This document shows positions 24,021-61,412 of a stretch of DNA of 64,000 nucleotides, in pieces. The notes beneath the pieces are model-generated. The model was not told the origin of the DNA and ran no database searches. It saw only the letters and a list, made by a program, of their open reading frames with translations. Source of the stretch: a phage; the NCBI GenBank assembly GCA_032986305.1, contig GCA_032986305.1_3672.1. One strand, 5' to 3'. Made by a program: the position numbers and the translations under genes. The number at the start of each line of letters is the position of its first letter. Within the stretch, counting starts at the first letter, position 1.

Positions 24021-24827
24021 TTAGATAAAACGCTTGAACATAGAAGGTGATGAGATTGATGGAATCACACAAGGAAGTGCTACCTCCTCTTTCTCCAGGA
24101 AATTAATTGCAGAAGCTACACAGTCAGCCCAGTCGTCTTTTCTGTTAAATGTTGATCTTTCCCCGTTGAATTTTTCAAGTTCAGTCAGAAATGCTTCCAG
24201 AGTATCAGGATGGAAACTGGATTTTACAATCCTAACCATTCCTTGTTGGGCAAGATTGGCAAAAGGTGAGAACCTTGTCAGTTTAGATTTGTTGGAAGGC
24301 ATTGGGTCTTCTTCAACCCTAAACCCTTCGGCGAGCAAGGATCTGGAGGATGTTAAGAACTCACTCTTACCTGCCTGACCGGGGTCCACAGAGAATACGA
24401 TTATACAATCATCACCATCAAACTGCGCCTGTTTCCTGATGATCACATCTCGTTCACCAGCCTTTTTACAGAACTTGCCTTCCAGACCTGTGGAATACCT
24501 CCCGTCATCCACGTTTTCAGGACAATAATCCCCTGACAGGTAATAAAAGCCGTCGCTATCTTTACTTACCTTAACACTGGCGGTAAAGTCAGGAAATTTA
24601 TTACCGGAAGTTCTGTCGGTTCCTGCCTTATCCCATGCCCTGCAAGATACTGATCCAAGGGGTACTCTATCGGCATCACGAAGGAAAGATCTTTGAAAAT
24701 AGTTTGCACCCTCAGGCTTTGCAAACCAGTTGCCATGAAGAAGCTGGGCTTTTTCAAGCTCGGGCAGACCTTCAAGAAAAGCAAGGTATTCTGGGTTGTC
24801 TCTCAAGCAGACAGGATTATCGAATCC
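24021..24827 (-). CDS. terminase large subunit, exon 2 (nuclease domain); 5' boundary approximate
   Basis: 261-aa ORF; continues the reading frame of exon 1 after removal of the intervening intron. Confidence 0.65.
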   Translation of the reverse strand, partial: GFDNPVCLRDNPEYLAFLEGLPELEKAQLLHGNWFAKPEGANYFQRSFLRDADRVPLGSVSCRAWDKAGTDRTSGNKFPDFTASVKVSKDSDGFYYLSGDYCPENVDDGRYSTGLEGKFCKKAGERDVIIRKQAQFDGDDCIIVFSVDPGQAGKSEFLTSSRSLLAEGFRVEEDPMPSNKSKLTRFSPFANLAQQGMVRIVKSSFHPDTLEAFLTELEKFNGERSTFNRKDDWADCVASAINFLEKEEVALPCVIPSISSPSMFKRFI

Positions 24828-25804
24828 TTATATTCAAAGGTGGTCGCAACACCACCTTCCGCACCTTTACGTGCTGCTGCATGTTACCATGCAGAGTAGA
24901 CTATATCACCACCCATTTCAGGGTGCTTCGCTTTTCGAGCGCCATAAGCTTGCGCCCTACTCCCTCTCGGGATAGTCGTTGAACTACATTACCAATCGTA
25001 ATTGTTTGAAATATAGGTGTAAGTCTTACGGTCTTTTATTCCTTTAACAACACTAAAACTTACTCCCCACTTCTTAGCTATTTTATTTACACACAAGACC
25101 TTATCACTAAGATCCTCGCAGATACCTATTATCTTGTGCTCACTTATCCGATTAGAGGTTGGCACTTTTCTAAAGTTAAACTCTTTAGAAATATCTGGGT
25201 ATACTGAGCCATTCTTTATACCACTTACAAGTGGTTGATTGACACCAAACATTTCACAAATGTCTTTTACCCTTGCGCCTTGCTCTAACAGCCTACATAT
25301 TTCAAGAGCAGTGGCATCATCCAGGGACCTGTATTTATTGACATAGTCCTTTTTAAGTCCCATTTCATGAGCGTGATGTGTGTTTTCCTCAGGCGTTGTC
25401 CACTCAAGGTTCCATGCGGCGTTATTCAACTTATTACCATCTAGGTGGTTTACTTGAGTTTTCACGCTGGGATTGTCATTATCAACAAAAGTCATAGCAA
25501 TCACTCTGTGAACGAGCACTTGGAACTTTTTACCGTCCTCGCACAAAGTTACCATAGCATAGCCAGTCTTTTTCTGCACATTAGGATGGAGGAATTTATT
25601 AGAATACAGACTGTAAATTCTGCCATCGTATGTAGCACAATAATGATTGTAGCCTAAAAAGCCTAAATTTTTCATTTCAAACATCTCCCTACTACAGGTT
25701 CGGAAGGGTAATTATAGCTGCTGATTGTCCGTTTAGCAATCGGATTTCCCAGCAATTAACGAAGTTATTCGACGTGCATTTCTGCACGAAGCCACTATCA
25801 TTTA
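24828..25804 (-). mobile_element. group I intron in terminase large subunit gene, carrying an HNH homing endonuclease ORF (boundaries +/- ~20 nt)
   Basis: R-like GTTCAACGACTATC (reverse of 24962-24975) and S-like GATATAGTCT (reverse of 24897-24906) core elements; 3' core nearly identical to the nrdD intron at 53500-53545; interrupts a single terminase reading frame. Confidence 0.65.
24989..25675 (-). CDS. HNH homing endonuclease (intron-encoded)
   Basis: motif ..VHRVIAMTFVDNDNPSVKTQVNHLDGNKLNNAAWNLEW.. (HNH_3-type); ORF lies inside the intron; stop 12 nt before the R element. Confidence 0.7.
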   Translation of the reverse strand: MKNLGFLGYNHYCATYDGRIYSLYSNKFLHPNVQKKTGYAMVTLCEDGKKFQVLVHRVIAMTFVDNDNPSVKTQVNHLDGNKLNNAAWNLEWTTPEENTHHAHEMGLKKDYVNKYRSLDDATALEICRLLEQGARVKDICEMFGVNQPLVSGIKNGSVYPDISKEFNFRKVPTSNRISEHKIIGICEDLSDKVLCVNKIAKKWGVSFSVVKGIKDRKTYTYISNNYDW

Positions 25805-26547
25805 ATGGTTGCGCCTATAAACGAGAATGACAACGGTCTTGGCTTGATCTCCACACCCAGTCCGTTAACCGTGGTGTATTTCTCTATCAACTCTTCTTTA
25901 GAGTCTCCCCAAATAAATTCACCGTCGCGTCGGATAAAATATCTTTTCTTACCGCATTTCTCCGGATCTGGATACCCTTCATCGTCCAACCACCATCTAA
26001 CCAGTTTGGCAAGCATGTGTTCTGAATCGGGGTTACAGCTGATAACCATTCTTGATGGATACTTTGACTGAGATCGCAGACGAGACATCAGATAGTCTAT
26101 CTGCTCCCATTCGAACTGCGTTCCCTCATCGAAGCAAACCATGGTGTACTCAAGCCCTTGATGGTTAAGCTTATCTTGTACATACTCCATGTGGCAGTAT
26201 TTTACAACAGCTCCCTTTTTGCTCCTATCCCACTTGCCAGTGTTCGGATCAAACCGTGGAAAAATGAACTTATGATCCTTCTCTCTGAACTTTGGCTTAA
26301 TGTTTTCAGGCAGATCACTATAAATAGCTACTGCTTTAGGCCATAGTCCACCCTCACCTTCCAACTGTGGGGTTGTTCTTCGGAACATAACCACAGAGCT
26401 GTGGGGGTCATCAATAATTTTAAGCGGCATCAACTGCAAGAGGAACGACTTGCCAGACCCTGCGGCACCGCCGATTACCAAAATATCTGCATCATTTTCG
26501 AGGATCATCTTCTGCTTTTCAGAACACGGTCCGTAAATCTTAGACAT
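25805..26547 (-). CDS. terminase large subunit, exon 1 (ATPase domain); 3' boundary approximate
   Basis: Walker A GGAAGSGKS near the N-terminus; ORF ends at a stop lying just inside the intron. Confidence 0.7.
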
Positions 26548-41989: not shown

Positions 41990-42001
41990 GGAATCTTAAC
42001 G

Positions 42002-42985
42002 ATGATGACAAAGTTAACTCTTGAGCAAATTTTAACACTAAAGCAACAGGGATACACTAATAGACAAATTGCTCGTGAATTTTTAGGCCGTGAGTCACGT
42101 GAGAGCTGGATCCGACTACAGCTTAAACGTGCACAAGAGAATATGTCAGAGATTGTAGGAGAAGCAACGGAGCGCTTCCTTGAAGAGCACAAAGGTGCTA
42201 AAGTTTGGGTGTATGATACAGAGACATCCCCAACAAACGGCTGGTTCTTTGGGCACTATAAGACCAACATTCAAACCTGTGGTATTGAAGTTATGCCTTA
42301 TATGCTAACTTTCGCAGGTAAGTGGTTAGACAGCCCTAGTGTGGTTGACTGCGCTCTTCCAGATTACAAAATGTGGGATGAGGATATTCACAATGATCTC
42401 GAATTGATTCAGGATTTGTGGTATTATCTGGATAAATGCGATGTCGCAGTAGCCCACAATTCAGGTTTTGACTGCGGGTGGGCCAACCAACGATTTGCAT
42501 TTCACGGGTTGCCTCCAACAAGCCCCTACAAAGATGTTGACACCCTTAAAATGATCAAAAAGGCATTCCGTTTGAATGCAAACACTTTGGAGTATGCATG
42601 CAAATACTTCCAACTGGCCCGACAGAAACTGATTGATCACACATTTGAAATGTGGATCAAGTGTGTCCATGGCGATCTTGAGGCATTTAAACAGATGCGG
42701 GAGTATAATGTTGGTGATATCCTGTCTCTGGAAGGACTGTATTTGCTGGCTCGCCCGTTTGCTAAGCAGCACCCAAACATGTCATTGTACTACCAGGACG
42801 AGGAGCCAAAGGTTCGTTGCCCACGCTGTGGTGGAGAACACTTTCACGAGGAAGAAGCTTTGGCATATACTCAGCTGAGTGCATTTAAAACATACCGCTG
42901 CGAAGGTTGTGGATCTGTTGTTCGTGACCGTAACAACATCCGTACCAGAGAAGAAATGAAAAACACCCTGATTCAGATAATCTAA
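42002..42985 (+). CDS. DEDD-type 3'-5' exonuclease with N-terminal HTH and C-terminal zinc ribbon
   Basis: HTH-like GYTNRQIAREF; exonuclease motifs VWVYDTETS, AHNSGFDCGW, YNVGDILSLEGLY; CPRCGG..CEGCG. Confidence 0.5.
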   Translation: MMTKLTLEQILTLKQQGYTNRQIAREFLGRESRESWIRLQLKRAQENMSEIVGEATERFLEEHKGAKVWVYDTETSPTNGWFFGHYKTNIQTCGIEVMPYMLTFAGKWLDSPSVVDCALPDYKMWDEDIHNDLELIQDLWYYLDKCDVAVAHNSGFDCGWANQRFAFHGLPPTSPYKDVDTLKMIKKAFRLNANTLEYACKYFQLARQKLIDHTFEMWIKCVHGDLEAFKQMREYNVGDILSLEGLYLLARPFAKQHPNMSLYYQDEEPKVRCPRCGGEHFHEEEALAYTQLSAFKTYRCEGCGSVVRDRNNIRTREEMKNTLIQII

Positions 42986-42993
42986 CAATTATA

Positions 42994-43021
42994 GGGAGGC
43001 TTGCGCCTCCCTTTTCCTTTT
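42994..43021 (+). terminator. intrinsic terminator
   Basis: GGGAGGC-TTGC-GCCTCCC then TTTTCCTTTT. Confidence 0.55.
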
Positions 43022-43030
43022 GGAGGCACT

Positions 43031-43849
43031 TTGAGCAAGAAAGAGTCCAACGACAAATATTACACAAACCCTGAGTATGCAGAATATCTTGTTGGTAAAG
43101 TAAAAGACAAGTATGGGAATTGTGCATACGTTGAGCCTTCTGCTGGAAGGGGTTCTTTTTCAAAACTATTTTCAAAGATACTGTCGTACGATCTAGTACC
43201 AGATCCTGAATTTGAAGGACCAACACAGTGCATTCAGGCAAACTTCTTGGAGGTGCATCCCAAGGCAGATGTCTTCATAGGTAACCCACCATTTGGCAAG
43301 AATTCATCTTTAGCTTGCAAATTCTTTAACCATTGTGCATCATTGCTAGAGCTTGGCGGGGCTATAGCCTTCATATTGCCACGGACATTTGAAAAAATAT
43401 TTTTTGCAAACAAACTGGACATGTCTATGCACCTTGTCTACAGCGAAAGGTGCCCTAAGAACTCGTTTTTACTTAATGGCAAACCTTACGACGTGCCATG
43501 TGTTTTCCAAATTTGGGAGAAAAAGGCGTGCAATAGGGATCCTGTAGAGATTGGAGAGAATAAGTTATTTTCTTTTAGCACTCCAGATGACTACGACTTC
43601 TGTGTAAGACGTGTTGGGTATAATGCTGGAAAAGTATTGGGGGATGATGACCCAAAATCTGAAGAATCGACATATTTCATAAAATCTTTAGTTGACGGTG
43701 TTGACAGAGTGTTTGCCGAATGCTATTCTTCTTTTCAAGAAGAAGCAGGTAAGACTGCTGGAATGAAGAGTATAGGCAAGAAAGAACTACAATACATTTT
43801 GGAGACCCGGTATGATCAAAAGCATAGACTTGACCAAAGAACTTACTGA
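43031..43849 (+). CDS. DNA N6-adenine methyltransferase (TTG start after terminator)
   Basis: motif IV FIGNPPFG, motif I-like EPSAGRGSF. Confidence 0.55.
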   Translation: MSKKESNDKYYTNPEYAEYLVGKVKDKYGNCAYVEPSAGRGSFSKLFSKILSYDLVPDPEFEGPTQCIQANFLEVHPKADVFIGNPPFGKNSSLACKFFNHCASLLELGGAIAFILPRTFEKIFFANKLDMSMHLVYSERCPKNSFLLNGKPYDVPCVFQIWEKKACNRDPVEIGENKLFSFSTPDDYDFCVRRVGYNAGKVLGDDDPKSEESTYFIKSLVDGVDRVFAECYSSFQEEAGKTAGMKSIGKKELQYILETRYDQKHRLDQRTY

Positions 43850-44270
43850 TGCAAAAGCTTTTGGTGAGACAGCGGTACAAAGAGGCCAGGCGATGGGACT
43901 GGCACTACCTTTCGTCTTAAAAGAGCACTTTACAGATTTTCAACTTATCAAAGGTGATAAGGGAATGCTTATCCTGGAGCATAAGTTGAGTAAGAAACGC
44001 TACAAAGTTGTTTTTAATTCTAAAGCCCCAACAAAACTTGGATTCAGAACTTACAATCTCAACCCATCCTATACTAAGGGTGTTGGAAGGGTAGAACAAC
44101 AGCATTTCAGTGCTAGAGCTTCTTTAGCCCCTTTGATGCTAAATTTCTCAGGGGTGGCTTTAGGATACCTTGATAAGAAAAGAGTTCTTCATGTCCGTTT
44201 CACAGACTTTGTAACGCTTTTAGCTAACAACGAAGTTGATGAAAAGGGACGTGTAAAAACAAACTTCTAA
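43812..44270 (+). CDS. hypothetical protein (152 aa)
   Basis: ORF only. Confidence 0.3.
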   Translation: MIKSIDLTKELTDAKAFGETAVQRGQAMGLALPFVLKEHFTDFQLIKGDKGMLILEHKLSKKRYKVVFNSKAPTKLGFRTYNLNPSYTKGVGRVEQQHFSARASLAPLMLNFSGVALGYLDKKRVLHVRFTDFVTLLANNEVDEKGRVKTNF

Positions 44271-44285
44271 TAACGCATAGTATGA

Positions 44286-44489
44286 TTGGAGACCGCAATG
44301 ACACTAAAGTTAACAATTACAGACAGCTTTTCAGAAAACTTTATCCCAGAAATGATGGGTAAGATGCGATCATTGCTTGATCAGATTGAGGAAGCTGTTT
44401 GGGAAGACGATGCTGTAGTGGCTAACGAGCTAGTAGATAAGTGTAAAAGTATTATTGATGCAGTTGAAGAATATCACGGAGGTTTTTGA
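44286..44489 (+). CDS. hypothetical acidic protein (67 aa)
   Basis: ORF with RBS. Confidence 0.3.
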   Translation: METAMTLKLTITDSFSENFIPEMMGKMRSLLDQIEEAVWEDDAVVANELVDKCKSIIDAVEEYHGGF

Positions 44490-45103
44490 TGGATATTATT
44501 GTTCTTAACGCCCCACCTAGCAGCGGCAAGGATCACATTGCAGATCTCTTGTTGGAAGCTATTCCTAACTCACACCACCGTGAGGTTAAGGAGATGCTCT
44601 TCAGTGTGGCAATTAAGGCAGCTGGTGTAACTCCTCAACTCTGGAATGCACTTTATGACCGCCACTACAAAGAAGAGCCTTGCCCTTTCTTAATGATAGA
44701 CGGCAAGCATGTTTCTCCGCGAGAGTGGATGATCCATTGTAGTGAAAATCTGATTAAACCTATCTTTGGTGAAGATGCTTTCGGTAAGGCCGCAGTCACA
44801 TCCTTGAAGAAAGATTTCCCTAAAGGTAAAGGGGTTGTTGTTTACTCCGATGGTGGATTCAAAGAGGAGCTGGCATGCCTTAGTGAGTACGCATACAGCA
44901 CAGGTGGAGATCTGTTGTTGTTCCGTATTCACCGTGTCGGATATGACTGGGGAAATGATTCCAGAACCTATCTAAGCCTGGAAAAGAACGGAATAAAAGG
45001 GATTGAGTTCGATGTTGTAAATCCTGAAGGTGCACCTTGGGAATGTGCATCGGAGATTGTGTGCAAGTATATTGATGCTAAAGAGGCCCAAGAAGAATGT
45101 TAA
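44486..45103 (+). CDS. P-loop nucleotide kinase-like protein (possible dNMP kinase)
   Basis: N-terminal ..IVLNAPPSSGKD.. P-loop-like; in nucleotide metabolism cluster. Confidence 0.4.
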   Translation: MMDIIVLNAPPSSGKDHIADLLLEAIPNSHHREVKEMLFSVAIKAAGVTPQLWNALYDRHYKEEPCPFLMIDGKHVSPREWMIHCSENLIKPIFGEDAFGKAAVTSLKKDFPKGKGVVVYSDGGFKEELACLSEYAYSTGGDLLLFRIHRVGYDWGNDSRTYLSLEKNGIKGIEFDVVNPEGAPWECASEIVCKYIDAKEAQEEC

Positions 45104-45690
45104 TCGGAATTGATGTAGATTTGACACTGGTAGATTCAGGAACAGCATGGTGGGAGTGGTTGGAGCGTTTGTATGGTCCAGCCAGTAAGACAGTCGTTAA
45201 ACCTTCTAATGGGCTGATGTATTACGATCTGTCAAAGTATTGGCCTGATCGCCCCAAAGAAAACATCATAGGACCTTTTGATTTCTGGAGTGATCCGTTC
45301 CTCTACGACTTTCTTAAGCCTGAAGAGGGGGCTATTGAGGTTATGAAAGATTTGGTGGCTCGCGGTCACAAGCTCGCATTTATCTCGGTATGCAAGAAAG
45401 GTCACCTTGCATCTAAATCAAGGTTCTTAAAGCGCTGGACCAGTGATTTTATGGATCTGGATGATCACACCCAGGGTCACGGCTTCTACGCCACACATTT
45501 CAAAGGTAATGTGGCTGTAGATGTTATAATTGATGACAGGCATGAATACCTGAACCAATTCGCTTCACGACCTGAAGTTATTAAAATCCTAAAAGACACG
45601 CCTTATGAGCAATTCGAAGAGTTAAAGGTCAGTGTTGACTATACCGCTAATAGCTGGTATAAAATAGGAAAGTTTTTAGAAGGTATTTGA
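45097..45690 (+). CDS. HAD-superfamily phosphatase (possible 5'-nucleotidase)
   Basis: N-terminal DxDxT motif (GIDVDLTLVD). Confidence 0.45.
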   Translation: MLIGIDVDLTLVDSGTAWWEWLERLYGPASKTVVKPSNGLMYYDLSKYWPDRPKENIIGPFDFWSDPFLYDFLKPEEGAIEVMKDLVARGHKLAFISVCKKGHLASKSRFLKRWTSDFMDLDDHTQGHGFYATHFKGNVAVDVIIDDRHEYLNQFASRPEVIKILKDTPYEQFEELKVSVDYTANSWYKIGKFLEGI

Positions 45691-45691
45691 A

Positions 45692-45892
45692 ATGGGCAGA
45701 TGTTCTAAAGGTGGCGATCCTGTAGTCAGATACGGTGACTGGCTAGAGGTGTATGATCTGGGAGGTAAGCTGGTGTATGCCTCCAGGATCACCCAAGACA
45801 TGTGCTCCGATATGTTCAACAGATACCTTGCATTTAAGGCTAACATAAACCCAGACGAAATTTCCAAAATTAAAACAAGGAGAGCTAAATAA
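45692..45892 (+). CDS. hypothetical protein (66 aa)
   Basis: ORF only. Confidence 0.3.
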   Translation: MGRCSKGGDPVVRYGDWLEVYDLGGKLVYASRITQDMCSDMFNRYLAFKANINPDEISKIKTRRAK

Positions 45893-46875
45893 TGCTAAAA
45901 CTGTGCACTGCAAAGATCATTGCTGACAGCATTTCCGAGAAAGGTAAGCGTATCACCACTTTTGAGCTAGAGTATCCTCGAATTATTCACTCAGAGCTTA
46001 TGACACATCGAGTGTTCAGCCGAAACGCCATGTCTTCCCGTGCAGTGCCTGTAGGCAAGATGCTACAACAGATTGTGGAGAATCCGGCAATGCCAGTTCG
46101 CTTCGGTGTAAATAAGCGAGGGATGGAAGATGGTGGGAAGCACGATCAAAAGATCCGTGTAGAGTACACCGACATGGAGCTAACTCCTGAAGAGTTTTGG
46201 AAAGAAGCTGCAAAAAACGCCGCTTGGCATGCAGAGAAGTTCGCCCTTGCTGGTTACCATAAGCAAGTATGTAACCGCTTAGTGGAGCCGTTTCAGCGCA
46301 TGAAAACAGTTGTAACAAGCACAGAGTGGAATAATTTCTTCCATCTCCGTTGTTGGCACGATGCTGACCCTACTATTCAGATGTTGGCTAATTGCATGTG
46401 GGAGGCTCTTATGAATAGCACTCCTGAAATCCTTAAACCGGGTCAATGGCACACTCCATATGTAGAGCACGTTTATTTGGACGGAGAGTTTAACTACGCT
46501 GTACGTGACACAGAAGGAAAGCTCTGTATTCTCGATACTAAAGAAGCTCTGTCTATTAGTGCTAGTTGCTGTGCACAAGTATCTTATCGAAATATTGACA
46601 GCACGTTTGAAAAGGCAGATAGTGTGGCTAAAAAATTGATTGGTGGGGATCGTATTCATGCAAGCCCTTACGAGCACCAGGCAACACCTATGGATCACGA
46701 TAACGCAATGGAACGTTTAAACTACTATCTATCTTCATGTGAAATCACACAAGACAGCTGTGTTTGGCAGGAAGGTGTAACCCATCAAGACCGTGATGGT
46801 AAATTCTGGTCTGCCAACTTTTGTGGGTGGGTTCAGCACAGACAACTGCTTAATAACCACTTTGTGAAAGGTTAA
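45892..46875 (+). CDS. thyX: flavin-dependent thymidylate synthase ThyX
   Basis: ThyX signature ..MTHRVFSRNAMSSRA.. (RHR-x-S-type motif); ~330 aa. Confidence 0.8.
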   Translation: MLKLCTAKIIADSISEKGKRITTFELEYPRIIHSELMTHRVFSRNAMSSRAVPVGKMLQQIVENPAMPVRFGVNKRGMEDGGKHDQKIRVEYTDMELTPEEFWKEAAKNAAWHAEKFALAGYHKQVCNRLVEPFQRMKTVVTSTEWNNFFHLRCWHDADPTIQMLANCMWEALMNSTPEILKPGQWHTPYVEHVYLDGEFNYAVRDTEGKLCILDTKEALSISASCCAQVSYRNIDSTFEKADSVAKKLIGGDRIHASPYEHQATPMDHDNAMERLNYYLSSCEITQDSCVWQEGVTHQDRDGKFWSANFCGWVQHRQLLNNHFVKG

Positions 46876-52568: not shown

Positions 52569-52811
52569 ATTACCAAAAACTACTTGAAAGTCCACAAAAT
52601 GGGTCTTGGTGAAGAATGTATCACACCTGTGTTCCCTAAAGTGCTGTTCTTCCTAGAAGAGGGTGTCAACATGAACCCTGGAGATCCTAACTATGATTTG
52701 AAACGTTTAGCTCTGGAATGCTCTGCAGAGCGGATTTATCCTGACTTTGTTTCTGTTCCACTAAATCGTAAAGTGACAGGCTCGACAGATGGCAAAGTAA
52801 CGAGCATGGGT
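52569..52811 (+). CDS. nrdD: NrdD exon 2
   Basis: encodes ..VFPKVLFFLEEGVNMNPGDPNYDLKRLALECSAERIYPDF.. matching recalled class III RNR sequence; ends in GGT before intron 2. Confidence 0.6.
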
Positions 52812-53573
52812 AAACTATAACTGCTCATGTAAAATCTATCTAAACGGGGAAACTCCAGAACGGACAATCCCGTGCTAAACGTAACAGAACTCCTGACCAA
52901 GAGGAGTCCTGAAATGAGAAAACAAATTCGTGATTTTGAAGGTTATGAAATTGACGAGATGGGCAATGTTTATTGCACCCGCTACGAAAATGAAAGAATT
53001 ATTCATTCGTGGGAAGAGATAAACACAGGTTACCGTCTTGTTAGGATACGCAAGAACAAAAAGACTGTTTGCCTAAGGGTTCACAGACTTGTTGCTGAAG
53101 CGTTCTTACCAAATCCAGACAATTTACCCTATGTTAAGCACAAAGGGGACAACAGGAAAGATAACAGTGTATACAACCTTGAGTGGGGAGCTTGCCCAGA
53201 CAATACGCAAGAAGGATACAACAACAACTGTTATGCTTTTTACACAAGATGCCACGGTGTGAAAGCCACCAACAAATTAACTGGTGAGGTTTTCCACTTT
53301 AAAAGTCTGAGATGTTGTGCTGATGTTTTAGGAGTGGATAGAAAAAGAATATCTGCTATCCTGAAACGTGGTGCGCCTAATAACTATGATTACGAGTTCT
53401 GTTACGAAATGCCTAACGACTAACCGTGATGAATGTAGCGGTGTAGGGTGTAAGCCGATGACACTCGAAATGGTAGACACACTAAGTGTGAAGATATAGT
53501 CTGATCTGCATGGGAACATGCAGCAGCACGTAAAGGTGCGGGGGTGGACTTGCGAACCACCCTGAACATAATG
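52812..53573 (+). mobile_element. group I intron 2 in nrdD, carrying an HNH homing endonuclease ORF
   Basis: R-like AACGACTAACC (53415-53425), S-like AAGATATAGTC (53491-53501); 3' core near-identical to terminase intron; exons rejoin as ..TSMG|CRSFL.. Confidence 0.65.
52915..53423 (+). CDS. HNH homing endonuclease (intron-encoded)
   Basis: GAGGAG RBS; motif ..RVHRLVAEAFLPNPDNLPYVKHKGDNRKDNSVYNLEW..; stop codon lies inside the intron R element. Confidence 0.7.
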
Positions 53574-54536
53574 TGTAGAAGTTTCTTATCGAAATATAGC
53601 GACCCTGTAACAGGCGAGGAGAAATACCTTGGCAGATTTAACTTAGGCGTTGTTAGCCTTAACCTGCCAATGATTGCGGCAAAAGCCAAGACGGAAGGTG
53701 TTGATTTCTTTGCAGTTCTTGACGAATACTTGGATCTTGCATACGAGGCTCACCTTGTAAGGGTTAATCGTCTAAAAGGAACAAAGGCAGGGCAGAACCC
53801 CATCATGTGGTGTGAAGGCGCTCTTGCTCGCCTGGATCCTGAAGAGAGTGTTGATAAACTCTTCTATGACGGGTACGCTTCCATCAGTATTGGGTATATT
53901 GGTGTGTATGAAACCTGTCAGATTTTGGGTAGAGAGGGTGACAAGGCTTTAGCTCTTGGAATCCTTCAGCACATGAGAGATGCTTGTGAGCGATACAAGA
54001 AGGAAAGTAGACTAGCGTTTAGCTTGTACGGCACTCCTTCTGAGAGTCTATGCTATAAAGCTGCAACCTGTCTGGATCGTGAATATCCGGAAGTGTTGAA
54101 GCACGAGCATGAATATCTCACCAACAGTTTCCATCAGCCAGTATGGATAAATAGCTCTCCTTTTGATAAGTGGGAGTATGAGGAAGGTTTTGCTATGATC
54201 TCCTCTGGTGGCAACATCGGATACGTAGAAACACCTAACCTGAAAAACAACCTGGATGCTTTAGAGGCTCTTGTTGACTTCGGGTATAAACATATTATGT
54301 ACTTCGGTATAAACCAGCCTGTTGACCAATGCTTCAAGTGCGGTTTCCAGGGAGAATTTAAAGCCTCTCCAAGAGGTTTTATATGCCCTTGTTGTGGAAA
54401 CCATGAGGAGGGAACGATCAGTGTAATTAGACGTGTGTCTGGATACCTTTCCAGTCCTAACTCCCGTCCTTACAATAAAGGTAAGCAAGCGGAAGTTATA
54501 GAACGGGTTAAGCACTATGGAAGTTGTAGTTGCTGA
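53574..54536 (+). CDS. nrdD: NrdD exon 3 (glycyl-radical C-terminal part)
   Basis: CRSFL..GRFNLGVVSLNLPMIA, C-terminal Cys cluster CFKCG..CPCCG and glycyl-radical-like RRVSGYL. Confidence 0.7.
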   Translation, partial: CRSFLSKYSDPVTGEEKYLGRFNLGVVSLNLPMIAAKAKTEGVDFFAVLDEYLDLAYEAHLVRVNRLKGTKAGQNPIMWCEGALARLDPEESVDKLFYDGYASISIGYIGVYETCQILGREGDKALALGILQHMRDACERYKKESRLAFSLYGTPSESLCYKAATCLDREYPEVLKHEHEYLTNSFHQPVWINSSPFDKWEYEEGFAMISSGGNIGYVETPNLKNNLDALEALVDFGYKHIMYFGINQPVDQCFKCGFQGEFKASPRGFICPCCGNHEEGTISVIRRVSGYLSSPNSRPYNKGKQAEVIERVKHYGSCSC

Positions 54537-54539
54537 TAC

Positions 54540-54569
54540 TTGACAGAAGCCACAAGGATGTGGCATACT
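54540..54569 (+). promoter_or_regulatory. sigma70-like promoter
   Basis: TTGACA-N18-CATACT. Confidence 0.4.
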
Positions 54570-54602
54570 TGGCTAATCTATGAGAACCAAGAGGGATCAA
54601 AG

Positions 54603-55559
54603 ATGCCTAGAGGAAAACAACTTACAACTGAAGAATTTACAAAAAGAGCTAGAGAAGTACATGGCGATAAATATGACTATTCAAAAACCGTATATAAAAC
54701 TGCTAAAAGTAAGGTTGTAATTGTATGCCCTGTTCATGGTGAGTTTACGCAGATCGCTGGACATCATATCCTTGACGGTAGTGGGTGTCCTAAGTGTGGT
54801 AGAGTGCCAGTAGGCAATAAGCTTAGAAACGATTCTAGTGATATTATCAAAAAATTTGTAAAAATCCACGGTGACACCTATGATTATTCTAAGGTTGAAT
54901 ATGTTAACTATAAAACTCCTGTAAAAATTGTATGCCCTGAGCACGGAGTGTTCTTGCAATCCCCATCTAACCATTTGAAAGGCCAAGGGTGCCCTGAGTG
55001 TAGTAAACTCATTAGCGCAGCAAAAAGGAATAAAGGCCCTGAATTCATAGAAAGAGCCAAAGAAATCCATGGCGATAAATATGACTACTCTTTTGTAGAT
55101 TATATGACTTGCGAAGATAAGGTAGAGATAATCTGCAACACTTGTGGAAATCACTTCACCCAGACACCTTCTTGCCACCTGTCTGGTCGTGGATGCCCTA
55201 AATGTGCCAAAAACGGTTTCTTATCTCACAACTATGGGAAGCTTTACCTCATGGTTGATAACTTAGAAGCGCCAACACTTATGAAGATTGGTGTGAGCGT
55301 CAATGTAGAAGCGAGGAAGGGAAGGATATTAAGAGCATCCAAGAAGGCTGGTGCAGGTATTTATGATCTCCACATAGTAAAAACATGGGGCGGATCGACT
55401 GAAAACATGCTGAGTGTAGAAAAATCTGTGCATGAAGCCTTCAATAAGTATAAAATAAACTTCTCTAAAGTATTTAGTGGAAGCACTGAATTCTTTCACT
55501 ACAGACCTGAAGTGTTTAGCATAGTGGAAGCAGTATACAAAGAGATCTGTGGTAAATGA
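54603..55559 (+). CDS. free-standing homing-endonuclease-like protein: three zinc-finger repeats plus C-terminal T5orf172/GIY-YIG-related domain (tentative)
   Basis: three repeats of HGDKYDYS..C(P)..HG.F..H..G.GCP.C; C-terminal ..GKLYLMVDN..KIGVS..HIV..; between nrdD and nrdG. Confidence 0.45.
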   Translation: MPRGKQLTTEEFTKRAREVHGDKYDYSKTVYKTAKSKVVIVCPVHGEFTQIAGHHILDGSGCPKCGRVPVGNKLRNDSSDIIKKFVKIHGDTYDYSKVEYVNYKTPVKIVCPEHGVFLQSPSNHLKGQGCPECSKLISAAKRNKGPEFIERAKEIHGDKYDYSFVDYMTCEDKVEIICNTCGNHFTQTPSCHLSGRGCPKCAKNGFLSHNYGKLYLMVDNLEAPTLMKIGVSVNVEARKGRILRASKKAGAGIYDLHIVKTWGGSTENMLSVEKSVHEAFNKYKINFSKVFSGSTEFFHYRPEVFSIVEAVYKEICGK

Positions 55560-57961: not shown

Positions 57962-58021
57962 AGGTAAATGTGAATCAGGTTTAAATAAATAGCTTTCAAC
58001 TTCCAATATTAAGGATTTCTC

Positions 58022-59071
58022 ATGAATTTAACACCTCGCAGCACCATGGTACACGGCATGAAAGAAAAACAGAACGGTTTCGAACCTATGAGTAATAAAA
58101 TGTTTGGTATGCCGGGCGGTATCATGGAAACATACAGCTACCCAACACCTGTTGTTGACCACGTTCTTTATATCGACGATTTGGAAGACCTACAGGATCA
58201 TATGTCTCGTCTGCAGACGATCCGTATGGCTCAGCCGGAAGAAAGCATTCGGGTAATCATCAATAGCCCTGGGGGTTGCGTGCACATTGCAATGGCTTAT
58301 CTGCAGGCATTCCGCGAGTCTCAGGCAAGCGTTGTTGCACATGCTGAAGGGATGTGCTGCTCTGCTGGAACAATCCTATGGCTGGGTTGCAAAGAACGCA
58401 CCGTGGCTCCGGACACAGAGTTTATGTTCCACTACTATCAAGGCGGCACTTATGGTAACGGTGTGAACATGAATACTCAGGTCAGCTACTGGAAAAAACG
58501 TTTCGAACGCCTGATCGAAAAATACTACGGTGGGGTGCTTACAGAAGATGAGATCGCATCCATCACAGCTGGTGGCGAAGTGTGGTTGGACGGAGAAGAG
58601 CTGGCAGCACGCACTGGAGCTATTATTCTGGATGAAGGCAACATACAACGCATCCAGAACGGACAAAAACCGAAAAAGCTTCTGGCAAAAGGTGATGAAG
58701 AAGGCGTGTTAGGTGAAGCAGGTCTTCCGGAGATTCACCAGTGCACATCTTTAGATGAGTTAGTTCATGCTGTTGAATCTGCAAAAGCGGGTGGTTCGAA
58801 AGGTGATGTTCACACTGTGTTCCTGAATCTGCAGATGGAGAGTGGCGAGACCGTCAGAATTGCCCTGGGTGAGATTACTTCAGAAGATCTGCAGAGATTC
58901 TCTGTCGTTGAACTTCAGGATATTCTGTCTCAATTGAAGACTACTCTGAACGGCGGTGAAGAGGTTAAGGTGAAAGATAAGACTCGCAAGCGTCTGGTGG
59001 ACAATATTATTAAAACAGCAAAAGAGCTCAATGAAAAAATCCTGGGTGCAGGAATTGTCGAAGAAGCTTAA
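58022..59071 (+). CDS. ClpP-family serine protease-like protein with C-terminal extension
   Basis: ..IINSPGG.. motif, Ser in GMCCSAGT, His in MFHYYQ; 349 aa. Confidence 0.55.
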   Translation: MNLTPRSTMVHGMKEKQNGFEPMSNKMFGMPGGIMETYSYPTPVVDHVLYIDDLEDLQDHMSRLQTIRMAQPEESIRVIINSPGGCVHIAMAYLQAFRESQASVVAHAEGMCCSAGTILWLGCKERTVAPDTEFMFHYYQGGTYGNGVNMNTQVSYWKKRFERLIEKYYGGVLTEDEIASITAGGEVWLDGEELAARTGAIILDEGNIQRIQNGQKPKKLLAKGDEEGVLGEAGLPEIHQCTSLDELVHAVESAKAGGSKGDVHTVFLNLQMESGETVRIALGEITSEDLQRFSVVELQDILSQLKTTLNGGEEVKVKDKTRKRLVDNIIKTAKELNEKILGAGIVEEA

Positions 59072-59084
59072 ACATTAATTCTAA

Positions 59085-59108
59085 AGCCCTCTTCGGAGGG
59101 CTTTTATG
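59085..59108 (+). terminator. intrinsic terminator
   Basis: AGCCCTC-TTCG-GAGGGCT then TTTTAT. Confidence 0.55.
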
Positions 59109-59122
59109 ATCTGGAGATTTGC

Positions 59123-59656
59123 ATGACTTGTGCTAGAAAACCTGATGAACAACGTAACGCCTACGATGAGTATGTGACACCGGAGTGGTGTGCAGAAGGG
59201 CTGTATGACCTTATTCCGTTCCCAGAAGACTGGACCTACTTAGAGCCTTGCAGGAATAGTGCCTCAGGTGTGTTCTACTCCCGTATGCCGTTAGGATCTG
59301 CATGGGGAGAAATCCAAGAAGGTGTTGACTATCTGAATACAGAATACAACCATGTTGACTGTATTATCACCAACCCACCATACAGCCTGGCTCGTGAGTT
59401 TGTAGACAAGGCGTTGAAAGATGCTGACGTAGTTATTATGCTTTTGCGTCTTAATTTTCTGGAAAGCAAAACCAGATTCGAATGGTGGCTTGATAATGCA
59501 CCTACCACTGTGATCACAATATCTAAGCGCCCGTCATTCCAATCCAATGGTAGAACGGATGGGCAGGCATATGCATATTTTGTATGGGACAAGAAAAACC
59601 GTCTAGACTTGCCGCCATTTATGTGGTTGGCACCACCAGAGGCAGACTTGAAATGA
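59123..59656 (+). CDS. small DNA methyltransferase (N6-adenine type, motif IV NPPY)
   Basis: ..CIITNPPYSLA..; 177 aa. Confidence 0.5.
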   Translation: MTCARKPDEQRNAYDEYVTPEWCAEGLYDLIPFPEDWTYLEPCRNSASGVFYSRMPLGSAWGEIQEGVDYLNTEYNHVDCIITNPPYSLAREFVDKALKDADVVIMLLRLNFLESKTRFEWWLDNAPTTVITISKRPSFQSNGRTDGQAYAYFVWDKKNRLDLPPFMWLAPPEADLK

Positions 59657-59937
59657 AAATGAGTGCTAAGGACAAGTTGCACCAGTTAGCGCTAAAACGT
59701 CCTGTAACGCTCCCTGACGAGCTTAACTCCATTTATGATGCGATTGTAGGGGAGATACAAAATAAAGCGTTAGCAGGCTTTCTGGGATGCGGATTTTCGA
59801 TAAATCTACCCTCACATCTCTCAGATTACTTCCCACACATTGTTGGGGATTTGAGGGCAGGAGGTCTGCAGGTGGATGTTGTTGGCATCTCTCCGGAGAA
59901 AAATAACACAGTTGCCTACTTGACAGTGACCTGGTAG
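59653..59937 (+). CDS. hypothetical protein (94 aa)
   Basis: ATGA overlap with methyltransferase stop. Confidence 0.3.
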   Translation: MKMSAKDKLHQLALKRPVTLPDELNSIYDAIVGEIQNKALAGFLGCGFSINLPSHLSDYFPHIVGDLRAGGLQVDVVGISPEKNNTVAYLTVTW

Positions 59938-59974
59938 TAGTGTATTTTGTTTTCAACAAGAGGGGGGGTCATCC

Positions 59975-60214
59975 ATGTATAAGTCATTTTCAATTTACTC
60001 AAGACAGGCAAAACACTACACAGAGATTCTGATCACTCAGAAAAAATCTGTAGAAGGTGAGTGGGAATATCATCATAAAATGTTGCGTCCAGACTGGGTT
60101 TTTGATAGACTTATTGCTATGATCCCTCTTGGAGAAGTATACCCTATGACAGGCCATAGGGATGCTTGGGATTTAATTGACTATATAGATTCATTTAAGG
60201 AGCCCAGTGTATGA
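59975..60214 (+). CDS. hypothetical protein (79 aa)
   Basis: ORF only. Confidence 0.3.
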   Translation: MYKSFSIYSRQAKHYTEILITQKKSVEGEWEYHHKMLRPDWVFDRLIAMIPLGEVYPMTGHRDAWDLIDYIDSFKEPSV

Positions 60215-60609
60215 AGATTGAGATCACTAAAGAAGGTAAGAAAGTGTCTGGAGACTATGCAACAGTAATTCGAGATTTAATGTTTGAAACCACCAAGTTC
60301 GGCACATCTAAAGTTGGTCAAACTGTTAGTGTGCAAGGTAATATCGTCTCAGGAGAGAAGATAATCATCGTAATAAAAGGCCAGGACCCTGTAGAAGGGA
60401 CAGTGGGCCGAGGAGGCTACCTGTGTATCTCTGAAGAGCCTCGTATGCTAGTTGCTGATAACTCTACAGGTAAAAAGCGGGTATGTAACACGGACGAGGT
60501 GATGATTATCTATCCAGTCAACCCAGATGATCCGGCAACATGGATTGTGGGAAATGAAATCTTCTCTTTAGAAGAGTTATCCTTCCCAGCTCCGCGCTCT
60601 GTTCAGTAA
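60211..60609 (+). CDS. hypothetical protein (132 aa)
   Basis: ORF only. Confidence 0.3.
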   Translation: MKIEITKEGKKVSGDYATVIRDLMFETTKFGTSKVGQTVSVQGNIVSGEKIIIVIKGQDPVEGTVGRGGYLCISEEPRMLVADNSTGKKRVCNTDEVMIIYPVNPDDPATWIVGNEIFSLEELSFPAPRSVQ

Positions 60610-60648
60610 TAATTTATCTTACCAGGGACGGTAGAAGTAGGAGGTAGC

Positions 60649-60882
60649 ATGAAAGTTAAATTTCTTACAGATTTAGGGTACCCTTCCTTGGTTGACTGCA
60701 TTGGTAAAATTGTGGAAGCAAAACGGCTATCTGCAAACGATAATGTTGTCATGGTTAAGGGAAAAGATTTATTAGCTGCAGGTGCAGAGTCTGGCAGGAT
60801 CTCTCCTGACTATACATATTACCTATCTTTAAGTAATCTACCAGAACGAGGTGGCAAAGGCCTTGAAGTTGTGGAGGAGTGA
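60649..60882 (+). CDS. hypothetical protein (77 aa)
   Basis: GGAGG RBS. Confidence 0.3.
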   Translation: MKVKFLTDLGYPSLVDCIGKIVEAKRLSANDNVVMVKGKDLLAAGAESGRISPDYTYYLSLSNLPERGGKGLEVVEE

Positions 60883-61412
60883 CAGGTATGCTTCTTATTA
60901 ACTGGGAAGACCTCTATGGGGACAAAGACCCTGTTGCGTTTGTTGATCGTAGATGGAGATATACTGAAGAACAACTGGCTGCAAAAAATTTAACTGCGAA
61001 ACGCAGAAAGATCATCCAGTGCAAGTATAAATACGCACAGTTTGCTGCAAAAGTGTCTCCACAAATCGAGAGCTTTGTGCTTAAATTGTATGACGAGTAC
61101 CTCAAATTCAGATTGGATTTTGTACAGGTATACCGTACACAGTTGCGCCCAGATACTAGCATTTGTAGATGGAAGGTTGTTTGTGACGGTAAAGATTTGC
61201 CGCTCAGCTTGACAATTGAGCAGCGTTGTGGGTATCATGAGTGCGGTCTGTATGAGACTTGGGATGTCATTGTAGATCCTGCTAAGTACCTGAACACGGA
61301 GGAGCTGGAATATATCAATAAGGTTATTCTAGATATGTTTTTCAGCTACACCTGTGAAAACTCCAAGAAAGAACGGGATACTTTTCTTGACACCATAAGC
61401 AACCATCTGTAG
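60879..61412 (+). CDS. hypothetical protein (177 aa)
   Basis: ORF only. Confidence 0.3.
   Translation: MTGMLLINWEDLYGDKDPVAFVDRRWRYTEEQLAAKNLTAKRRKIIQCKYKYAQFAAKVSPQIESFVLKLYDEYLKFRLDFVQVYRTQLRPDTSICRWKVVCDGKDLPLSLTIEQRCGYHECGLYETWDVIVDPAKYLNTEELEYINKVILDMFFSYTCENSKKERDTFLDTISNHL

Follow-up and report, generated by a model that had tools for sequence, protein, structure and literature searches.

Adenine methyltransferases of an rV5-like phage: a GATC-specific enzyme and a probable GTAC-specific enzyme beside a putatively disabled restriction-like partner

Two DNA methyltransferase genes, ORF1 and ORF2, were analyzed in a 64,000-nucleotide stretch of phage DNA (the window). Taken as a whole, the data are best explained by ORF2 being specific for GATC and ORF1 for GTAC, with ORF1 acting as a solitary protective methylase next to a partner gene that has been disabled, a reading to which we assign a probability of roughly 70%. 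The gene annotations and the activity and target of ORF2 are already published. New here, and computational, are the assignment of GTAC to the ORF1 family, two partner gene families which we have named R1 and R2, and the putatively disabled partner beside ORF1; the GTAC assignment and the R1 and R2 families may already be familiar to the curators of REBASE. The features concerned are as follows.

42993 to 43026, plus strand: terminator-like hairpin (42993 to 43012) and a T-run, then the ribosome binding site of ORF1, GGAGG (43022 to 43026).
43031 to 43849, plus strand: ORF1, a 272-aa TaqI-like (gamma-order) N6-adenine DNA methyltransferase with probable GTAC (GTm6AC) specificity.
43133 to 43159, plus strand: ORF1 motif I, EPSAGRGSF, the SAM-binding loop; E35, P36, G39, G41, and F43 are invariant in 61 homologues.
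43283 to 43294, plus strand: ORF1 motif IV, NPPF, catalytic; G84-N85-P86-P87-F88-G89 is invariant in 61 homologues.
43812 to 44270, plus strand: 152-aa partner gene, a putatively degenerate R2-family homologue that matches phrog_9938; 38-nt overlap with the 3' end of ORF1.
59123 to 59656, plus strand: ORF2, a 177-aa minimal N6-adenine DNA methyltransferase, GATC specific and Dam-like; retron trigger.
59327 to 59371, plus strand: ORF2 codons for D69 (59327 to 59329), D79 (59357 to 59359), and T83 (59369 to 59371), the sites of the loss-of-function/retron-escape changes D69G, D79G, and T83P (PMC12548924).
59372 to 59383, plus strand: ORF2 motif IV, NPPY; N84, P85, and P86 are invariant in 63 homologues.
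59653 to 59937, plus strand: 94-aa ORF (phrog_12158), translationally coupled to ORF2 by an ATGA overlap.

The window phage was identified from its sequence as a Vequintavirus, an rV5-like E. coli myovirus. The DNA at positions 42000 to 46000 and 58000 to 61000 is 98 to 99% identical to that of more than 100 such phages, and the near-identical relatives of the window include MiataMamis, LL12, rV5, FV3, and several BASEL phages. The comparisons below rely on Bas51 (Escherichia phage WalterGehring, MZ501111), in which the orthologue of ORF1 is gp200 (269/272 residues identical) and that of ORF2 is gp176 (176/177 identical).

Both genes were found where the initial annotation had placed them, with the NPPF and NPPY motifs that it reported, and both products are predicted to adopt methyltransferase folds. 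The 64 kb holds three [NDS]PP[FYW] tetrapeptides (six frames, ORFs of at least 100 aa), two of which are those of ORF1 and ORF2, indicating that these motifs are real rather than chance matches. The count of two methyltransferase genes is correct within the window, but the Bas51 genome carries two more beyond the equivalent region. The open frame of ORF1 spans 43001 to 43849 on the plus strand, and its 272-aa product, starting from a TTG at 43031, corresponds to the CDS annotated in BASEL phages. A DnaQ-like exonuclease gene precedes the terminator-like hairpin upstream of ORF1. ORF2 is preceded by a ClpP-like protease gene, and the 94-aa ORF that follows it (59653 to 59937) showed no sign of a functional link to it. 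In distant ORF2 homologues from other phages, the PhoH-ClpP-methylase gene order is kept, with no nuclease-like partner.

Alignment-based AlphaFold models of ORF1 (pLDDT 92.9) and ORF2 (pLDDT 90.2) assign both proteins to the class I SAM methyltransferases with a TaqI-like N6-adenine core. The motifs are arranged in the order X-I-IV in the N-terminal half of each protein (DKYYT, EPSAGRGSF, and GNPPFG in ORF1; DEYVTP, EPCRNSASG, and TNPPYS in ORF2), and the N-terminal D-x-[FY]-x-T(P) and the NPP(F/Y) are invariant or nearly so among 61 ORF1 and 63 ORF2 homologues. The two families are distant homologues of each other across the catalytic core (hhalign probability of 97.6%). In predicted fold and motif order they resemble the gamma-class enzymes M.TaqI, M.BseCI, CamA, the methylase domain of MmeI, and type I HsdM, and the profile of the ORF2 homologues matched M.TaqI at 6e-6. 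They differ from these enzymes in lacking a separate target-recognition domain at the C terminus: ORF1 extends beyond the core by about 100 residues, and ORF2 is a bare catalytic core that ends at 177 aa.

In PHROGs, ORF1 belongs to phrog_5172 (7e-129), labeled "unknown function", and ORF2 to phrog_799 (6e-67), labeled "DNA methyltransferase". Both proteins fell below every curated methyltransferase cut-off in Pfam and NCBIfam, with best scores of 15 to 20 bits located near motif IV. Against the models scored (Pfam N6_Mtase, Eco57I, EcoRI_methylase, and the phage Dam family PF05869; NCBIfam TIGR01712), the best values were 16.3, 20.3, and 19.1 bits for cut-offs of 25 to 28, and 16.6 bits for the TIGR01712 cut-off of 97; the gamma-class thresholds of N6_Mtase and Eco57I were thus not reached. 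Single-sequence searches of PDB sequences with ORF1 and ORF2 gave no match, and a Foldseek search of viral structures with the ORF1 model returned no named characterized relative.

The initial annotation had left the target specificities of both enzymes open, which is outdated for ORF2, whose target follows from the T83P mutant of an orthologue with a single residue difference; for ORF1 we infer GTAC. In a 2025 study, all escapers of Bas51 from two retron systems were mutated in a Bas51 N6 adenine methyltransferase, and the engineered changes D69G, D79G, and T83P in this enzyme abolished defense (PMC12548924). The gene concerned must be gp176, because the 177-aa protein is the only one compatible with D69, D79, and T83; all three residues are present in both gp176 and ORF2. 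Nanopore sequencing of wild-type Bas51 gave 1405 6mA sites in GATC, 509 in GTAC, and 576 in other contexts, compared with 35, 511, and 349, respectively, in the T83P mutant (PMC12548924, S4 Table). By our count, the Bas51 genome contains 703 GATC sites with 1406 adenines and 258 GTAC sites with 516, numbers so close to the published ones that both motifs must be essentially fully methylated in Bas51 virions. GATC methylation in Bas51 was thereby shown to depend on the ORF2 orthologue, and since ORF2 differs from it at a single residue, the specificity of ORF2 is known to be GATC, the methylation itself having been measured in Bas51. The initial annotation had also made its reading depend on modified bases in virion DNA that could be attributed to these genes, and such bases are indeed present, as the ORF2 orthologue methylates Bas51 virion DNA (nanopore, PMC12548924).

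On the Bas51 data, ORF2 does the same job as E. coli Dam and T4 Dam, forming Gm6ATC on phage DNA. It gave no match to the alpha-class Dam family (Pfam MethyltransfD12); its motif order is gamma-like and its SAM loop (EPCRNSASG) unusual. Like the small phage Dam family (PF05869, TIGR01712), it is shorter than 200 aa and has no target-recognition domain, yet it scored only 19.1 bits against PF05869 (cut-off 28.1) and stayed far below TIGR01712, as given above. The 346 GATC sites of the window occur at an observed/expected ratio (O/E) of 1.0 and are not avoided. Among earlier reports, the CB7 paper described ClaI evidence of Dam-type methylation in a distant Vequintavirinae relative and did not name the gene responsible, methylation goes unmentioned in the rV5 genome paper, and the VpaE1 and metaepigenome papers were of no help in assigning GTAC.

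ORF1 most likely makes GTm6AC. Comparison of the published counts with the site count indicates that about 510 of the 516 GTAC adenines of Bas51 stay methylated when the ORF2 orthologue is inactive. E. coli K-12 is not known to encode a methylase for GTAC (it has Dam, Dcm, EcoKI, and a silent YhdJ), and a phage enzyme must therefore make the GTAC methylation of Bas51, for which there are two candidates, gp200 (the ORF1 orthologue) and bas51_0070, the latter encoded beyond the region equivalent to the window.

Site depletion points to the ORF1 family. In viral loci with an ORF1-family gene, GTAC was by a wide margin the most depleted 4-bp palindrome, with O/E values of 0.34 where R1 was present, 0.42 with R2, and 0.41 where no partner was detected. 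The per-locus median was 0.34, whereas 70 viral loci that had been fetched with the ORF2 family as controls had a median of 0.87 (Mann-Whitney p of 1.6e-18). In bacterial loci, the GTAC ratio was 0.80 where a partner was missing, compared with 0.51 and 0.54 where one was present. In the window, GTAC is again the most depleted 4-mer palindrome (108 sites, O/E 0.54), and in the whole Bas51 genome it is the second most depleted (O/E 0.59). GATC depletion was considered as a positive control for site avoidance and was found not to be specific, with medians of 0.69 in ORF2-family and 0.67 in ORF1-family loci; GATC was the most depleted palindrome in the ORF2-family loci. As evidence for the target of ORF1, site depletion is circumstantial, and family members that are 35 to 45% identical need not share one specificity. 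A characterized GTAC m6A methylase, M.HpyAXII of Helicobacter pylori, has been described as a TaqI-like enzyme in which residue 87 is the catalytic Asn (PMC2588503). The chemistry and site proposed for ORF1, which has N85, are the same, a likeness at the level of enzyme class that is drawn from the published description.

The other candidate, bas51_0070, could be the GTAC enzyme, in which case ORF1 would either be weakly active or have another target, to which part of the 349 other 6mA calls would belong. This gene encodes a 441-aa beta-class, Mod-like protein that matches Pfam N6_N4_Mtase over its full length (4e-42), has room for a target-recognition domain, and is present in about 88 Vequintavirus records; moreover, the published data assign GTAC to no gene, and the roughly 349 6mA calls in T83P remain without a motif. 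We nevertheless consider this arrangement unlikely, because in unrelated contigs, viral as well as bacterial, the depletion of GTAC follows the ORF1 family and because that family forms gene pairs resembling restriction-modification (R-M) systems. In addition, annotators place bas51_0070 with the type III Mod subunits, which as a rule methylate a single strand of an asymmetric site, whereas GTAC is about 99% methylated on both strands. For the 349 other calls, GANTC was tried as a motif and rejected, as its 350 sites in Bas51 would give 700 adenines; the numerical match was treated as a coincidence.

Relatives of ORF1 comprised 795 database proteins at an E value of 0.001 or below, 65 bacterial loci in a survey that took a single genome from each species, and 476 viral contigs in a scan of IMG/VR, many of them giant-virus MAGs. 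The gene pairs were recognized by clustering of neighboring genes and HMM searches around bacterial and fetched viral loci. R1 proteins are about 200 aa long and R2 proteins about 130 to 175 aa. Of the 80 viral loci fetched, 43 had a gene of the R1, R2, or 152-aa type adjoining the ORF1 homologue, as did about 21 of the 65 bacterial loci; the distance was nearly always no more than about 100 nt, and the partner could lie on either side of the methylase gene and on either strand. The bacterial pairs often lay beside an IS1595 transposase. Type II R-M pairs of chloroviruses and bacteria have the same properties, in that a small methylase and its partner are adjacent in any orientation and mobile; those acting at GTAC include CviQI, Csp6I, and RsaI. 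Strict adjacency combined with free orientation is the pattern of an R-M pair, which argues that the substrate of ORF1 is DNA and not RNA.

The canonical R2 proteins conserve an E...D...(D/E)xK signature resembling that of PD-(D/E)xK enzymes. Neither R1 nor R2 matched anything in Pfam, NCBIfam, or the PDB, whether searched as single sequences or as profiles. PabI represents a known family of GTAC glycosylases, and R.HpyAXII, the partner of M.HpyAXII, is PabI-like. The bacterial partners were accordingly considered as PabI-like proteins or as other known nucleases and were rejected as such after searches of Pfam, NCBIfam, and the PDB; in having no PabI-like match, R1 and R2 differ from R.HpyAXII. 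The description of R1 and R2 as putatively restriction-enzyme-like draws on gene context together with the sequence motif.

An action of ORF1 on RNA was also weighed. In this reading, ORF1 would be a METTL5/Erm-type enzyme that forms m6A in rRNA or tRNA of the host or the phage. Only about 150 of its residues align with the METTL5/PH1948/Ta1320 and Erm/KsgA rRNA adenine methyltransferases. Enzymes of this type act on rRNA, and METTL5 needs TRMT112. We regard this reading as very improbable, since the matches that cover ORF1 at whole-protein length (230 to 249 aa) are the DNA enzymes BseCI, MmeI, CamA, and TaqI, about 64 of 145 loci pair the ORF1 family with a restriction-enzyme-like gene, the depletion of GTAC in DNA is specific to carriers of the family, and ORF1 is located in a module for DNA replication and nucleotide metabolism. 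Virion DNA furthermore contains a methylated motif still lacking a gene, which ORF1 as a DNA enzyme would explain.

The initial annotation described both methyltransferases as orphans with no adjacent restriction gene. Searches of PHROGs, Pfam, and NCBIfam did not reveal a known nuclease among the neighbors, but ORF1 adjoins a remote R2 homologue, the 152-aa gene. "Orphan" is the right word functionally, if the partner is as inactive as its sequence predicts, but does not describe a methylase that travels with a conserved small partner gene. The 152-aa gene, which has a GGAG of its own, starts 38 nt ahead of the stop codon of ORF1. Its homologue lies immediately upstream of the ORF1 homologue in contigs of phAPEC8-type and other phages, in the order opposite to that of the window. 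The genes flanking the pair vary, being primase-helicase and DNA polymerase in one case and NrdG and PhoH in another, and the finding of the same pair between different flanks shows that the two genes move together.

The relationship of the 152-aa family to R2 was detected by hhalign (probability of 95.5%, E value of 1.6e-8, 98 columns), and three loci were hit by both the R2 and the 152-aa profile. A joint alignment exhibited the common signature Y...PSxxxGxGR. The same family showed no relation to R1 and no match in Pfam or the PDB. A word-based search with the 152-aa protein found close relatives only, to which an exhaustive HMMER search added four weak hits. Proteins from Vequintavirus and Phapecoctavirus carry P, L/I, and K-V in place of the R2 residues E, D, and (D/E)xK, respectively, and no acidic residue is invariant in this phage subfamily. 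Purifying selection on the gene is nevertheless strong: the window copy and that of FV3 differ by 29.5 synonymous and 3.5 nonsynonymous changes, giving a dN/dS of 0.027. The best reading of these sequences is that the 152-aa protein is a catalytically disabled relative of the R2 partner that has been kept for another role.

Because the gene overlaps ORF1, is homologous to R2, and is strongly conserved by selection, and because many giant-virus contigs carry an ORF1-family methylase with canonical partners, the pair might instead be an active R-M system that cuts unmethylated host DNA at GTAC in the manner of the chloroviruses. All four positions of the R2 signature are substituted, however, leaving the window partner, in contrast to those of type II R-M pairs, without the putative catalytic residues, and no canonical R1 or R2 gene was found anywhere in the window or the Bas51 genome. 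An active pair is for these reasons highly unlikely. The disabled-partner reading can be taken further, tentatively and with a good deal of doubt, by supposing that this restriction endonuclease homologue lost catalysis and was reused as an anti-restriction factor or as a DNA-recognition helper for ORF1. As an anti-restriction factor, it might form dead heterodimers with host R2-type enzymes or cover GTAC sites until they are methylated; as a helper, it might provide DNA recognition to a methylase that has no target-recognition domain.

Under the proposed model of a GATC enzyme and a solitary GTAC enzyme, both would modify the phage's own replicating DNA. Through ORF2, all 346 GATC sites in the window (Bas51 has 703) would be fully methylated when packaged, with immunity to GATC-cutting enzymes that are blocked by m6A as the presumed benefit and avoidance of host systems that read unmethylated GATC as a possible further one. 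ORF1 would act as a solitary protective methylase at GTAC, with the 108 sites of the window and 258 in Bas51 as its substrates, and the R2-like partner of Vequintavirus and Phapecoctavirus would have lost its nuclease residues and been retained for a different role. The expected consequence is that the DNA of the phage and its relatives resists enzymes of the MboI/DpnII and RsaI/KpnI types and is cut by DpnI and similar methyl-directed enzymes. RsaI fails to cut GTm6AC (PMC2588503).

Self-protection by the two enzymes is plausible in a narrow form. None of the R-M systems used in the BASEL tests is known to target GATC or GTAC. In that study, the Vequintavirinae were "exceptionally susceptible" to the six R-M systems tested, of types I, II, and III, so any protection would be limited to enzymes cutting sites that contain GATC or GTAC; the anti-restriction role proposed by the initial annotation is tenable in this restricted sense, but as a broad function it is unsupported by the published plating data (PMC8594841). 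The only measured phenotype of ORF2 is a cost, namely the triggering of retrons. The Bas51 methyltransferase triggers retrons Asa1 and Squ1 and is toxic when overexpressed, and the noncoding RNAs of both retrons contain GATC, the reverse transcription of which into RT-DNA was confirmed for Asa1 (PMC12548924). In the model, ORF2 would thus trigger retron abortive-infection systems with GATC in their msDNA.

If true, the assignment of GTAC would give a specificity to an unclassified methylase family with no target-recognition domain, represented by about 800 database proteins and found on 476 viral contigs and at 65 bacterial loci, and the GTAC module would define two candidate nuclease families. 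New biology could reside in one element, the conserved and putatively disabled partner gene. The triggering of retrons by the ORF2 enzyme bears on the prediction of host range, and relatives of the window phage are widely used, in O157 typing, in biocontrol, and as members of the BASEL collection. The records of these relatives have for years named the two genes "putative DNA N6-adenine methyltransferase", "methyltransferase", or "hypothetical protein".

Upstream of both ORF1, the gene for a predicted N6-adenine methyltransferase with a probable GTAC target, and ORF2, whose Bas51 orthologue methylates GATC, lies a GC-rich hairpin with a T-run behind it. At both genes this element comes immediately after the stop codon of the preceding gene, and hence ORF1 and ORF2 may each be first in their own, separately attenuated transcription unit. 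A counterpart of the BASEL "putative glycosidase" bas51_0171 was located nearby.

42993-43012, hairpin and T-run upstream of ORF1
59083-59106, hairpin and T-run upstream of ORF2
60879-61412, + strand, bas51_0171 counterpart, 1.2 kb downstream of ORF2

The ORF2 orthologue of Bas51 triggers retrons Asa1 and Squ1, and mutations in it abolish the defence; a premature stop (R87*) in bas51_0171 does the same for Asa1, with Squ1 defence unaffected (PMC12548924).

Twelve 6-bp palindromes, for the most part GC-rich, had zero copies in the window (1-64000), including CGATCG, TGGCCA, GGCGCC and GCTAGC (1 to 7 of each expected in 64 kb), and CTAG, ACGT and GGCC were fewer than expected. These absences and shortages point to a general avoidance of restriction sites by the phage, in addition to methylation.

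The alignment of the window to Bas51 was interrupted close to the genes for terminase and anaerobic ribonucleotide reductase, the gaps coinciding with annotated homing endonucleases and split genes in Bas51; homing-endonuclease content thus differs among relatives. Close relatives also carry two additional methyltransferase genes, which in Bas51 lie beyond the window-equivalent region.

about 24825-25808, alignment gap
52811-53609, alignment gap
54565-55029, alignment gap
MZ501111 64456-65781 (L011:14456-15781, L011 being the Bas51 locus), additional methyltransferase gene
MZ501111 67042-67806 (L011:17042-17806), additional methyltransferase gene

One, which occurs in approximately 88 Vequintavirus records, encodes a Mod-like adenine methylase of the beta class (441 aa); the other product (254 aa) is annotated as a "Dcm-like C5 cytosine methyltransferase" and had zero matches to Pfam. 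In T83P, the Bas51 mutant of the ORF2 orthologue, 349 6mA calls had no assigned motif, and their agreement with the 350 GANTC sites of Bas51 is probably due to chance.

Approximately 20 GenBank "Campylobacter phage" records (MG065646-MG065684; matches H8-H10, H26, H27 and others), with Campylobacter jejuni as stated host, were 95-99% identical to the window, which comes from an E. coli Vequintavirus, over both methyltransferase regions. These records are probably contaminants or mislabelled.

The ORF1 family was common in giant-virus MAGs (IMG/VR loci L111-L165, GVMAG contigs). Several ORF1 homologues, among them protein P0013 on loci L002 and L003, had a precomputed Pfam match to PF26055 (Mtase_EDM2), the methyltransferase-like domain of plant EDM2. 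This match suggests that viral methylases of the GTAC type are linked to a domain of a eukaryotic chromatin protein. In bacterial loci (L013, L015-L017, L020, L024) from Campylobacterota, Alphaproteobacteria and one Gammaproteobacteria MAG, an IS1595-family transposase gene often directly adjoined the pair formed by the methylase and its restriction-enzyme-like partner, which suggests that this insertion sequence moves the module.
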